From a virus, in the IMG/VR virus record IMGVR_UViG_3300009285_000023, positions 1-42,830 of that record: 42,830 bases of DNA. The stretch is one strand, 5' to 3'. Positions 16,580-18,868 of this stretch are shown in pieces (position 1 is the first letter of the stretch; every line of letters starts with the position of its first letter). The position numbers and the translations under genes were made by a program. The notes beneath the pieces are model-generated. The model saw only the letters and a program-made list of their open reading frames with translations. It ran no database searches and had not been told where the DNA came from.

Positions 16580-17460
16580 TTAAAGGTGAGCGAAGCCAAT
16601 GAATGAGCTGTTTTCAGCTCGGGCTTCGACTGTTAGTTCCCCGGCAATCATGCCCTTACTGGAAAGACCAGTTTTGGCAATCTCCTCGTAGTGAGGTTCG
16701 TCGAGGTGGGCAATAGCCCATTTTTCTTTTTCTAGGCCAACGATGTCTAGGTTGTTGTCCCCAGAAACAGTTACCCAACGGTGTTTGTGTACTTCAACTC
16801 GACCGAAGTCGGAGTCATAAGTATCAATGGCGTTGTAAACTTGTTTGGTGTCAGCGTTGACGAAGCGGGTGTTGGTGTTAGTGAAGCCACTGATGCGTCG
16901 CTTCAGGGTGCCACCGACGAGTAACATATTGACATTTCCACCTTGGTTCCAAGCATTTTGGAGGTAGGTGTTCATTATGTTCTCAGACAGCGAAACGCCT
17001 GATTGTGCAGTAGAAAGTGTGCTTATCGCATACTTAATACCTTGCATCTGGCGAGCAGCCGAACCGGTACCGGAGATGAGGGTCGAACGAAGGACGGCGT
17101 AATCCGCAAAGCGGCGCCATTCCCTCATAGCCTTCTGCATCTCGTAGGAGTATCGGTCTTTGAAACCGGCTGGATTGGAAGCTCGGTCCGAACTTGAAAC
17201 TTGGAATTCAGACGTAATAATCTGAGTCCAGTTTGAACTTCGGGTTGGATTGGTACGAGCGGCGAATGTCGCATCGGCACCTTCCACACGGGCTACCAAG
17301 GATATAGCGGCCAAAGTATCAGTATTCCATTGGTGTTGGACGGCTGTAGCCTTTGACTTTTGTAAACCAACATACAACTGGTCTTCATCGGGAGAAATGT
17401 TGACGATGAGGTCAAGCAAGCTCTCACGAATGGCCCGGTTATCGTCAGTGTTGTTACTTT
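16580..17460 (-). CDS. Major capsid protein, SU10-type, proposed exon 2
   Basis: LLDLIVNISPDEDQLY...HQWNTDTLAA...EGAD... matches the SU10-like MCP pattern. The frame is open upstream to 17472 but has no ATG or GTG start; the only start-type codon is TTG at 17419. Confidence 0.8.
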
Positions 17461-18031
17461 CCCTGTCGGGATGGCTGGGTCATTTCTGCCCAACTCTGCA
17501 TATTCCTATGCAGCTCAGACTATAGCTTCACCCGCAAACATTAATTGCGGGGTCTCTCGCTTAGTCGTTACACGCGCTCTATGCTGCTCTAAAGTCATTA
17601 AGAGTTCTTCGCATTTCTGCTTTTTCTCACCAGCCATGAAGGGGGCAATGAGTGGTAATAGATATCGTAGGTCATCTATTCGCTTCAACGATATCACATA
17701 ACAGGGTTTAGTCCATCTAAAAGACTGTGGATACCGCTTGATGCTGGCAGTTTTACGAACTCTACTGTATTTGAGCTTTAGTGTATCGTATATTTCGCAT
17801 ACTCTATCGAGTAATCTTTCGTCAGAGTTTACAATTAAGATACCCCTATTGTAGTTGTACTGGCCGTTTCCTGGACGTAATTTCTTAGCGTAGTTCGCGA
17901 TGGAACCTTCGCCCTCAATTATCCCAGCAAGCCAGGCTAGAGCTTCGCTCGGTGTTGTCCCATACTTTTCAGCTGTAGGAGTTCCACCGAATTCAGAGAG
18001 ATATTTTTTCACAGAGATTACTCCCTGCGTA
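17461..18031 (-). mobile_element. Intervening sequence in the capsid gene (putative self-splicing intron carrying a homing endonuclease)
   Basis: It separates a 31-nt ATG-initiated exon with a strong RBS from the capsid body. ACAGGG is present at both boundaries, and joining the exons restores the frame. Confidence 0.5.
17515..18012 (-). CDS. LAGLIDADG homing endonuclease (single-motif, 165 aa)
   Basis: LAGIIEGEGS motif about 28 aa from the N-terminus. Size is typical of homodimeric LAGLIDADG enzymes. GTG start. Confidence 0.75.
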   Translation of the reverse strand: MKKYLSEFGGTPTAEKYGTTPSEALAWLAGIIEGEGSIANYAKKLRPGNGQYNYNRGILIVNSDERLLDRVCEIYDTLKLKYSRVRKTASIKRYPQSFRWTKPCYVISLKRIDDLRYLLPLIAPFMAGEKKQKCEELLMTLEQHRARVTTKRETPQLMFAGEAIV

Positions 18032-18062
18032 CCCTGTTGGCCAAGGTATAGGTAATAGCCAT
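18032..18062 (-). CDS. Major capsid protein, proposed exon 1 (MAITYTLANR)
   Basis: AGAAAGGATTACC-ATG lies 44 nt after the scaffold stop. If unspliced, the frame stops after 14 codons. Confidence 0.5.
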
Positions 18063-18106
18063 GGTAATCCTTTCTAAATTCTAGTTAAAGAATTTTATTT
18101 AAGTTG

Positions 18107-18868
18107 TTATTTCTCGCTACCGAATAATGCGGTTTTGAGGATTTCCCTTTGAGCTTTTTCCGCAACGATTGGGTTGGGGTCAGCTATCTGGGACAGTAGT
18201 TGGTCTTGTCCACTAGCCGGAACTGTCGAAGCAGTCTCAAGATGGGCGGATTGTTGAACCCGGACATTCTCGATGGTCTGCTTGACGCCTTCGGTCTTGG
18301 CGGCGCCAACTTTCTTGAAGAACTTATCGGCGACTTGAGCGGGGGTCGGGAATTTTACATCCTTCTGCCCTTTATCCAGAGCTTGCAAAACTTCTCCCAT
18401 ACGGGTGTTTTGAATCATGTCTCTAGTCTCATTATCGTTTTTAAGGTCAGGGTATTTTTCGAAGGCTTTATCCCAAAGCTGCTCTTCCTGACGCTGTTCA
18501 GCGACTTCTGCCCGAACTTGCGCTCTGGCAGCTTCGGCTATAGCAACATTATTTTGATTGATAGCTGTCGCCAGACTGTTGAGGTCTGTATAGCCGCTTT
18601 CGTCGACTGGTAGCTGAGTTAGGTCGAGCTGAGGTACCGGCGGTGCAGGCAGAGGTGTTGCCTCTTCCTCGGCTGGCGCCTCTTCTTCAGCTGGCACGAC
18701 TGGCGGTTCAGTCGGAGCCGGAGCTTCAACTGGCGCAGGCGCTTCAGCTGGTGGGTCATCTGGTACATTTGATTCATTTGGGGCCGGTGTTTCCGGCTCG
18801 CCGACTGCCGCATTAACTACGGCATCCAGCTTTGCCTGATTATCAGGCGATGGAGTATTATCATCCAT
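18107..18868 (-). CDS. Scaffolding protein
   Basis: Acidic Pro/Ala/Glu-rich N-terminus and a helical C-terminus. It lies between the portal and capsid genes. Confidence 0.6.
   Translation of the reverse strand: MDDNTPSPDNQAKLDAVVNAAVGEPETPAPNESNVPDDPPAEAPAPVEAPAPTEPPVVPAEEEAPAEEEATPLPAPPVPQLDLTQLPVDESGYTDLNSLATAINQNNVAIAEAARAQVRAEVAEQRQEEQLWDKAFEKYPDLKNDNETRDMIQNTRMGEVLQALDKGQKDVKFPTPAQVADKFFKKVGAAKTEGVKQTIENVRVQQSAHLETASTVPASGQDQLLSQIADPNPIVAEKAQREILKTALFGSEK

Follow-up and report, generated by a model that had tools for sequence, protein, structure and literature searches.

A predicted group I intron with an I-CreI-like LAGLIDADG endonuclease ORF in the SU10-type major capsid gene of uncultured phages

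Introns in phage capsid genes have been described in a few systems. The capsid gene of the mycobacteriophage LittleE contains an intron carrying the endonuclease gp14, whose splicing was demonstrated by reverse transcription PCR and N-terminal sequencing (Pope et al. 2013, PMC3706429), and, according to a citation in the same paper, a spliced intron is also present in the capsid gene of the lactococcal phage Tuc2009. Phage introns most often carry endonucleases of the HNH, GIY-YIG, PD-(D/E)xK, and EDxHD classes (PMC3984707). The element considered here lies in a stretch of viral DNA of 42,830 nucleotides (nt) (IMG/VR record IMGVR_UViG_3300009285_000023, analysed over its full length and called the window below), where the major capsid gene, on the minus strand, is interrupted by an intron near its 5′ end, 19 bases past the start of its true start codon, ATG 18062. 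The preferred reading, to which we assign a probability of about 0.88, is that codon 7 of an SU10-type capsid gene houses a canonical, mobile group I intron, 598 nt long, with an I-CreI-like homing endonuclease; a group I intron with the boundaries 18043..17446 is considered very likely.

As described, the LittleE intron resembles that of the window in splitting a capsid gene as a (probable) group I intron, with an exon ending in U and an intron ending in G, and in encoding an endonuclease akin to I-CreI, a LAGLIDADG enzyme. The LittleE endonuclease gene, however, lies on the opposite strand and has an HNH-like C-terminus, whereas the open reading frame (ORF) in the window is co-oriented with the capsid gene and overlaps the whole catalytic core. 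The LittleE intron follows the delta-domain cleavage site of an HK97-like capsid, whereas the window intron lies in codon 7 of an SU10-type capsid gene, unrelated to that of LittleE, from uncultured phages of groundwater and other metagenomes. The chloroplast 23S rRNA introns of I-CreI, I-MsoI, and I-CvuI also encode single-motif LAGLIDADG enzymes of ~150-165 amino acids (aa), but the sequence identity is 13-21%, and their host gene is an organellar rRNA without translation of the flanking exons. The I-CreI ORF is housed in P6, a peripheral loop of its ribozyme. Phage introns were compared as well (Salmonella phage Vi06, PhAPEC5/7, and Pseudoalteromonas pYD6-A; also td, nrdB, and sunY of T4). 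Like the window intron, these reside in protein-coding genes and have an upstream exon frame that is stopped before the core, an arrangement familiar from the T4 introns, and short stretches of P7′-J7/9-P9 are 87-97% identical to introns of T7-like/N4-like DNA polymerase and ribonucleotide reductase genes. They differ in encoding HNH or GIY-YIG endonucleases at other insertion sites, whereas the window intron encodes a LAGLIDADG protein and no P7.1/P7.2 was seen in it.

The capsid body is of the SU10 type (PF17236, E=2e-67) and ends at 16580. Its frame is open upstream to a TGA at ~17481 and offers no ATG or GTG start; gene callers begin it at TTG 17419, which has no convincing ribosome-binding site, and report a protein of 279 aa (P0001; L003 likewise), missing the intron and with it the first 15 residues of the capsid. 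ATG 18062, by contrast, lies 44 nt past the stop of a scaffold-like gene (18868..18107, minus strand) and is preceded by AAAGGA; the frame that it opens, MAITYTLANRVRRE, ends after 14 codons at TAA 18020-18018. The original prediction had described this start, the short frame, the startless capsid body, and the endonuclease ORF with its GTG, and had proposed that the capsid gene is interrupted by a LAGLIDADG-encoding, intron-like element, all of which held up. The principal features, all on the minus strand, are as follows.

18068..18073, minus strand: Shine-Dalgarno-like AAAGGA of the capsid gene, seen in the sequence 5 nt upstream of ATG 18062
18044..18062, minus strand: capsid exon 1, 19 nt, ATG GCT ATT ACC TAT ACC T, the last base being the U of the U.G wobble
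17446..18043, minus strand: group I intron, 598 nt, U18043 to terminal G17446 (RF00028 match at 17496..18055; covariation)
17515..18012, minus strand: homing endonuclease ORF, 165 codons from GTG 18012, with the single LAGLIDADG motif WLAGIIEGEGS
16580..17445, minus strand: capsid exon 2, starting AC GAT AAC CGG…, stop codon 16582-16580 (homologues and the empty site of L001)

Removal of the intron restores a 294-aa capsid that is colinear both with its homologues and with the empty site in L001, whose capsid is uninterrupted and 69% identical. The 24 homologues that were read, of 345 matches, are 294-298 aa long with the N-terminus MAxTYTYDDRAIRE and start MAQTYTYDDRAIRESLLD…, MALAYTYDDKAVRE…, or MAQTSNFTYDDRAIRE…; an uninterrupted homologue of 294 aa starts MAQTYTYDDRAIRESLL…. 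When all in-frame joins were enumerated, only that of 18044 to 17445 combined a U before the intron and a G at its end with the N-terminus of the family and a length of 294 aa. The product reads MAITYT-Y-DNRAIRESLLDL… (that is, MAITYTYDNRAIRESLL…; MAITYT-Y-DNRAIRESLL…), with the intron inserted inside codon 7 (Tyr), which is split T/AC (slashes mark junctions). L001 reads …TTTACCT·ACGATGATCCGGC… across the site, and the ligated exons of the window would read …ATACCT/ACGATAACCGGGC…, the predicted junction in the transcript being …ATTACCTATACCT/ACGATAACCGGGCC…. The best match to a capsid of a deposited phage has 34% identity, and no close capsid homologue was found in a deposited phage.

A covariance search, which had been suggested as a check of the original prediction, matched the group I intron model RF00028 over its full length to 17496..18055 with 38.6 bits (E=3.7e-8 when the region is searched, E=1.8e-6 when the window is), and this was the sole match in an Rfam scan of the whole window. 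The helices could be assigned as listed here, with MFE denoting minimum free energy.

18030..18048, minus strand: P1, UACCU/U 18048-18043 with guide strand AGGGUA 18035-18030, loop GGCCAAC (covariation, MFE fold)
18012..18027, minus strand: P2 hairpin CAGGGA-GUAA-UCUCUG (compensatory changes in 4/6 pairs)
17940..18001, minus strand: 5′ half of the core (covariation, helix mapping)
18001-17996, 17990-17985, 17980-17976/17962-17958, and 17954-17949, minus strand: P3, P4, P5, and P4′, respectively
17948-17947 and 17943-17940, minus strand: 5′ strand of P6
17518..17579, minus strand: 3′ half of the core (covariation, helix mapping)
17579-17574, 17573-17567, 17566-17562, and 17558-17553, minus strand: P6′, J6/7 GUGUAAC, P7 GACUA, and P3′ GAGAGA, respectively
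17551-17545/17537-17531, 17530-17523, and 17522-17518, minus strand: P8 CCCGCAA/UUGCGGG, J8/7 UGAAGCUA, and P7′ UAGUC, respectively
17446..17515, minus strand: 3′ domain (helices 10-13, all 100% paired)
17515-17514 with 17448-17447, minus strand: P9.0, AG with CU (9/9 paired)
17513-17496, minus strand: P9, CUGCAUA-GGAA-UAUGCAG, with a GGAA loop
17494-17474, minus strand: P9.1, with the invariant loop CAGAAAUGA
17471-17460, minus strand: P9.2 hairpin UCCC-GACA-GGGA, which includes ACAGGG 17466-17461
up to G17446, minus strand: conserved tail of the 3′ domain, GUAACAACACU / GUAACAACACUG, then the terminal G

P2.1, P5abc, and P7.1/7.2 are lacking in the intron. The 5′ splice site is formed by the wobble U18044.G18034. 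P2 contains the GGAG of the endonuclease, holds the UAA that ends the capsid leader in its loop, and has G18012 of the endonuclease GUG as its last base; in the MFE fold it is lengthened to 8 bp and the whole GUG is paired. The 5′ 58 nt alone fold into P1 and P2 (z=-3.2, MFE). The two 7-bp hairpins that had been noticed at the 3′ end of the element correspond to P9 (17513-17496) and P8 (17551-17531).

The structure was tested against nine distinct introns, all inserted in this Tyr codon in capsid genes of the SU10 type (those of the window, L006, L007, L008, L009, L020, L028, L030, and L035); a search with the J6/7-P7-P3′ core motif had added further members, including ORF-less ones of 258 nt (L020) and 269 nt (L030). 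Exon 1 is 16-25 nt long in all members. Six of them have a capsid gene that is complete and has no other interruption, and in these, removal of the intron after U and after G gives full-length capsid ORFs of 294-304 aa. For the alignment, sequence anchors served to cut the blocks at constant offsets, and variable loops were padded with N; MAFFT left its 250 columns unchanged, and it replaced an automatic MAFFT alignment that misaligned the P1 loops, L5 (the loop of P5), and P6 of L020. The proposed structure has standard pairs in 96.6% of 557 P1-P9.2 cells, compared to 33-47% when slid by 1-3 columns. Compensatory changes occur in 34/62 pairs, and 0/500 shuffles reach any observed measure. Pairing amounts to 100% in P3, P6, P7, and P8, 98% in P4, 94% in P1 (compensatory in 3/6 pairs), 89% in P5, and 72% in the 2-bp P6a, which is the only helix of P3-P8 without compensatory changes. 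P6, which closes around a loop of 360 nt, is compensatory in 3/4 pairs, with the variants GCUC/GAGC, GGUU/AACC, GCGU/ACGC, GCCU/AGGC, and GAUA/UAUC, and in P7, the guanosine-binding helix, which forms a pseudoknot with P3, an A-U pair becomes G-C in step in L006 and L007. These patterns identify the capsid insert as a predicted canonical group I intron in which all helices P1-P9.2 are present and covary.

Both splice sites are constrained by the same comparison. The U.G pair at the 5′ site is found in 8/9 members, with covarying neighbouring pairs. The terminal G17446 is invariant across the nine introns, and since P9.0 pairs the two bases before it with J7/9 in 9/9 (variants AG/CU, UU/AA, GU/AC, AA/UU, and GC/GC; pair types AU/GC/UA and GC/UA/AU/CG), the 3′ splice site is fixed between 17446 and 17445. 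The remaining member, L028 (~445-470), has C as the last base of exon 1 opposite a guide-strand A, giving C.A instead of U.G.

The original prediction had placed the junction elsewhere, joining 18032 to 17460, with an ambiguity of 6 nt owing to ACAGGG, and thereby removing a 571-nt element, by a non-canonical mechanism or by an undersized ribozyme unlike group I, to yield a 303-aa capsid starting MAITYTLANRESNN (MAITYTLANRESNNTDDNRAIRE…). The frame is indeed restored by this join, the element so defined ends in G, and the hexamer ACAGGG is present at both ends (18037-18032 and 17466-17461). The N-terminus that was called typical, however, includes nine residues absent from all 24 homologues, and the proposed alignment of homologues supports 18044/17445 rather than the 303-aa product. 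At this join (AACAGGG/AAAGTAAC) the base before the 5′ site would be G or A instead of U. Nor does ACAGGG act as a boundary signal: its 20 occurrences in the window are what chance predicts (20.9), its upstream copy overlaps the P1 guide strand, and its downstream copy sits in the covarying P9.2 hairpin, with the tail GUAACAACACUG and the P9.0 pairing still downstream of it. The repeat is missing in the eight sister introns, all of which are in frame at U/…G/A sites. The pairing proposed between CTCTGT (18016-18011) and ACAGGG as a guide is also contradicted, as CUCUG pairs within P2 with the adjacent CAGGGA across the GUAA loop. This reading is regarded as extremely improbable; the intron is 598 nt long (18043..17446) rather than 571, and the true 5′ site lies 12 nt upstream (after U18044) and the true 3′ site 15 nt downstream (after G17446) of the sites first proposed. 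Hardly any weight is given either to a junction of 18032-18034 with 17433-17435, which would produce MAITYTLANR-AIRESLL…. Its 294 aa equal the length of the homologues, and TTGGCCAACAGGG near exon 1 and TACGATAACCGGG of exon 2 share 8/13 bases; but it would put the 5′ site after a G within the P1 guide strand and the 3′ site 11-13 nt past the position set by P9.0 and the terminal G, nearly all examined homologues have Y/N-D/T/S-[DNS]-x instead of L-A-N-R, and L001, at its empty site, lines up with ACCT/ACGAT.

Another possibility is that no splicing occurs, the endonuclease gene being free-standing or a dead insertion and the 279-aa capsid being made from TTG 17419 or nearby (cf. Aeh1 nrdA/mobE). 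Automatic annotation gives this protein (P0001; L003), and there is precedent in known endonuclease insertions that do not splice (discussed in PMC7344957). Against this, a complete ribozyme with compensatory changes has been kept around the ORF in nine lineages, exon 1 and exon 2 rebuild the conserved N-terminus exactly, ORF-less versions occupy the same site where the gene is rescued only by splicing, and TTG 17419 has no convincing ribosome-binding site. Absence of splicing is accordingly judged improbable, and the group I intron would be expected to self-splice in vivo.

Three further candidates were tried and rejected. An intein is incompatible with an exon-1 frame that stops after 14 codons, an endonuclease in another frame, and a TGA that precedes exon 2 in the capsid frame. 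No Rfam group II match was found at E<=10 for the region or E<=0.01 for the window, and size and ORF type do not fit a group II intron. A 3′ splice site just after P9, with GUUGG 17493-17489 pairing with CCAAC of the P1 loop as P10, leaves stops in every frame; GUUGG is also ruled out as a P10 strand because it covaries with CCCAGC as P9.1.

Several observations were made beside the covariation test. The capsid gene of L020 holds two group I introns ~70 nt apart (238-454 and 527-757), namely the ORF-less intron in the Tyr codon (79.9 bits) and a second one just downstream (62.2 bits); with the first alone removed, the frame stops after 22 codons. With its intron removed, the capsid gene of L008 (2250-3024) still meets a stop at codon 162, and gene callers split it into fragments of 90 and 177 aa; either an assembly error or a further interruption could account for this stop. 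Some other viral or metagenomic contigs (L017, L018, L019/L024/L025, L021, and L034) have the J6/7-P7-P3′ motif in introns that lack an ORF and lie at other sites and in other genes, with RF00028 scores of 44-64.5 bits for L018, L021, and L034. No base of the 9-nt P9.1 loop CAGAAAUGA (17488-17480 in the window) varies among the nine capsid-site introns, and most other family members have the loop too; the AUG inside it has been called as the capsid start in L009 (309 aa), an annotation artefact.

The original prediction considered the element too compact for a canonical group I intron. Of the two alternatives that it offered, a core overlapping the coding sequence extensively was the correct one: the ORF (18012..17515) covers every core helix from P3 (18001) to P7′ (17518). 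The conclusion drawn from this did not stand, given that P1-P9.2 are present and covary and that in relatives without an ORF, 258-269 nt long, the ribozyme is seen by itself. According to the structural model described below, the folded domain (residues 22-143) is encoded inside the P6 stem-loop (17943-17576), residues 1-21 by 18012-17950 (P2′, P3, P4, P5, and P4′), and residues 147-165 by 17574-17518 (J6/7, P7, P3′, P8, and P7′), so that ~120 nt serve as both ribozyme and codons. In this model the folded enzyme occupies the normal peripheral position in the P6 loop and only low-confidence tails overlap the core; the overlap would cost the protein little, because the tails are predicted to be unstructured. 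The ORFs of same-site relatives stop at varied points between P7 and P9.1, and five of the six other such ORFs have an in-frame ATG in L5, with an in-frame TTG there in L028. In the window L5 is short and its ATG falls in another frame; the ORF happens to be open back to the GTG in P2. As the relatives indicate, the overlap probably arises by extension of the ORF from a start in L5 or L6 (the loop of P6), combined with late stops. An endonuclease ORF that runs into core sequences is a recognised arrangement (Hausner, Hafez & Edgell 2014, PMC3984707, Fig. 2b). The window ORF is like those in overlapping core helices rather than staying in a loop, but the overlap is maximal here, every helix from P3 to P7′ lying within it.

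The endonuclease GTG begins 5 nt past the TAA of the 14-codon frame, with GGAG 8 nt upstream. Seven relatives were detectable among 5.8 billion proteins, all encoded between the scaffold and capsid genes of other phage contigs, and the neighbouring capsid was confirmed as SU10-type by Pfam for P0121 and P0123-P0125. In the motif W27-L-A-G-I-I-E-G-E35-G, nine family members show no variation at W, L, A, G, I, G, E, and G, among them the acidic residue that aligns by motif with the catalytic Asp of I-CreI. PF14528 is matched by 7/9 members (best 1.3e-10), and a profile of the family matches I-HjeMI (2e-7), I-AniI, I-OnuI, and I-CreI. An AlphaFold2 (AF2) model from a 7-sequence alignment has a mean predicted local distance difference test score (pLDDT) of 73, with a confident alpha-beta-beta-alpha-beta-beta-alpha domain at residues 22-143 (H22-35, E36-44, E52-62, H65-77, E83-87, E104-109, and H112-125; one domain per chain) and tails at residues 1-17 and 147-165 of pLDDT <50. 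The best Foldseek matches are three homodimeric enzymes of introns, I-CreI, I-MsoI, and I-CvuI (probability 1.00, template modelling (TM) score 0.54-0.61), and the model places the protein in the fold class of single-motif, I-CreI-like LAGLIDADG enzymes. The ligated-exon site ATTACCTATACCTACGATAACCGGGCC / ATGGCTATTACCTATACCTACGATAACCGGGCCATTCG is its candidate target, and the corresponding empty site was identified in L001; activity and target are both putative.

An identical endonuclease on the same phage segment was found in L003, L004, and L005, from at least three other ENA metagenome samples, one of them titled groundwater metagenome; L004 differs from the window by a single base in exon 2 (CCGGGAC in L004, CCGGGCC in the window). 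The most distant endonuclease relatives (32-33% identity; L013 2873-3700, L015 3424-3608 and 4597-4853) belong to introns at another site, in a different capsid-type gene with an exon 1 of ~32 codons ending …FKFR. L015 has a second intron at that site with an HNH gene (RF00028, 68 bits). Motifs of the 3′ domain are partly common to this group, with the CAGAAAUGA loop in L013 and a GUAACAG…G tail.

Several points weigh against the preferred reading. Splicing is itself deduced from sequence, and the P9.2 stems in the test alignment were picked by hand. The window intron scores 38.6 bits in Rfam, short of the curated cutoff of 50; this is explained by the 360-nt ORF loop in P6, which the model does not span and which leads it to misplace P6′-P8. 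ORF-less introns at the same site exceed this cutoff (79.9 and 58.3 bits). A P10 pairing of the guide region with the first bases of exon 2 was not convincingly found in the window, and by eye amounts to at most 3 bp in L007. On the side of the endonuclease, the window protein alone scores below the Pfam thresholds (14.9 and 14.3 bits, E=0.03-0.08) and gives only a weak match in a PDB sequence search (E=0.18), and the ligated-exon site of the window is not visibly pseudo-palindromic, as the targets of homodimers usually are (5/11 half-site positions palindromic). The enzyme could be poorly expressed or decaying, because its sole possible start in the window is the GTG buried in P2.

These last points favour a functional ribozyme whose endonuclease is no longer active or expressed, leaving the intron immobile here, a reading that differs from the preferred one in mobility alone. 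The loss of frame of the L5 ATG of the relatives after shortening of L5, which leaves only the GTG in P2, the sub-threshold Pfam scores, and the lack of an evident palindromic target all agree with it. The 165-codon ORF is nevertheless intact and identical on four contigs (three places shown, three ENA samples) and in the window, WLAGI-EGEG including its acidic residue is invariant, the domain is modelled at high confidence, and GGAG stands 8 nt before the GTG. An inactive endonuclease is therefore thought unlikely, though it carries more weight than any of the alternatives above.

Under the preferred reading of a mobile group I intron, the last five bases of exon 1 would pair with the guide sequence to form P1, with the U.G wobble at the cleavage site, and the core P3-P8 and the 3′ domain P9.0-P9.2 would fold around it. 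In the folded late capsid transcript, an exogenous G would attack after U18044, and the freed exon 1 would then attack after G17446, joining U18044 to A17445, rebuilding the Tyr codon, and allowing the 294-aa capsid to be made. The endonuclease, presumably a homodimer, would cut intron-less capsid alleles (…TACCT·ACGAT…) of co-infecting relatives, whose repair would copy the intron in.

Translation and splicing may also be linked. The exon-1 frame stops before P3 in 9/9 members, in the window at the UAA of the GUAA loop of P2, and by stopping ahead of P3 it would keep ribosomes from the capsid start out of the core. Because P2 pairs the GGAG and GUG of the endonuclease, its translation is probably low, or reliant on ribosomes that melt P2 while reading the 14-codon leader, and coupling of the GTG to the 14-codon ORF is possible. 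Counted from the AUG, the 5′ strand of P1 occupies positions +15 to +20, within or edging the footprint of the initiating ribosome. One speculative extension, which we consider doubtful, is that the position of the intron is no accident: its lineage would be adapted to the initial 16-25 nt of capsid mRNAs, with translation start, splicing, and endonuclease expression wired together. Ribosomes reading an unspliced transcript would keep P1 from forming and at the same time open P2, and termination with re-initiation 5 nt downstream would make the endonuclease from non-splicing transcripts, while folded, spliced transcripts would make capsid. If true, such a switch would be a built-in control setting capsid output and homing.

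The capsid intron does not overturn current understanding; it appears to define an undescribed site-specific intron family of a known kind. It adds a well-supported case of a phage structural gene whose group I intron carries a LAGLIDADG enzyme, an unusual cargo for phage introns, and it documents one site-specific family with both ORF-containing and ORF-less members. It also illustrates how an endonuclease ORF can be spread over an entire ribozyme core with only unstructured tails coded twice. The same intron has gone unrecognised in at least nine lineages of uncultured SU10-like phages, which implies that capsid N-termini are systematically mis-called in such metagenomic phages.

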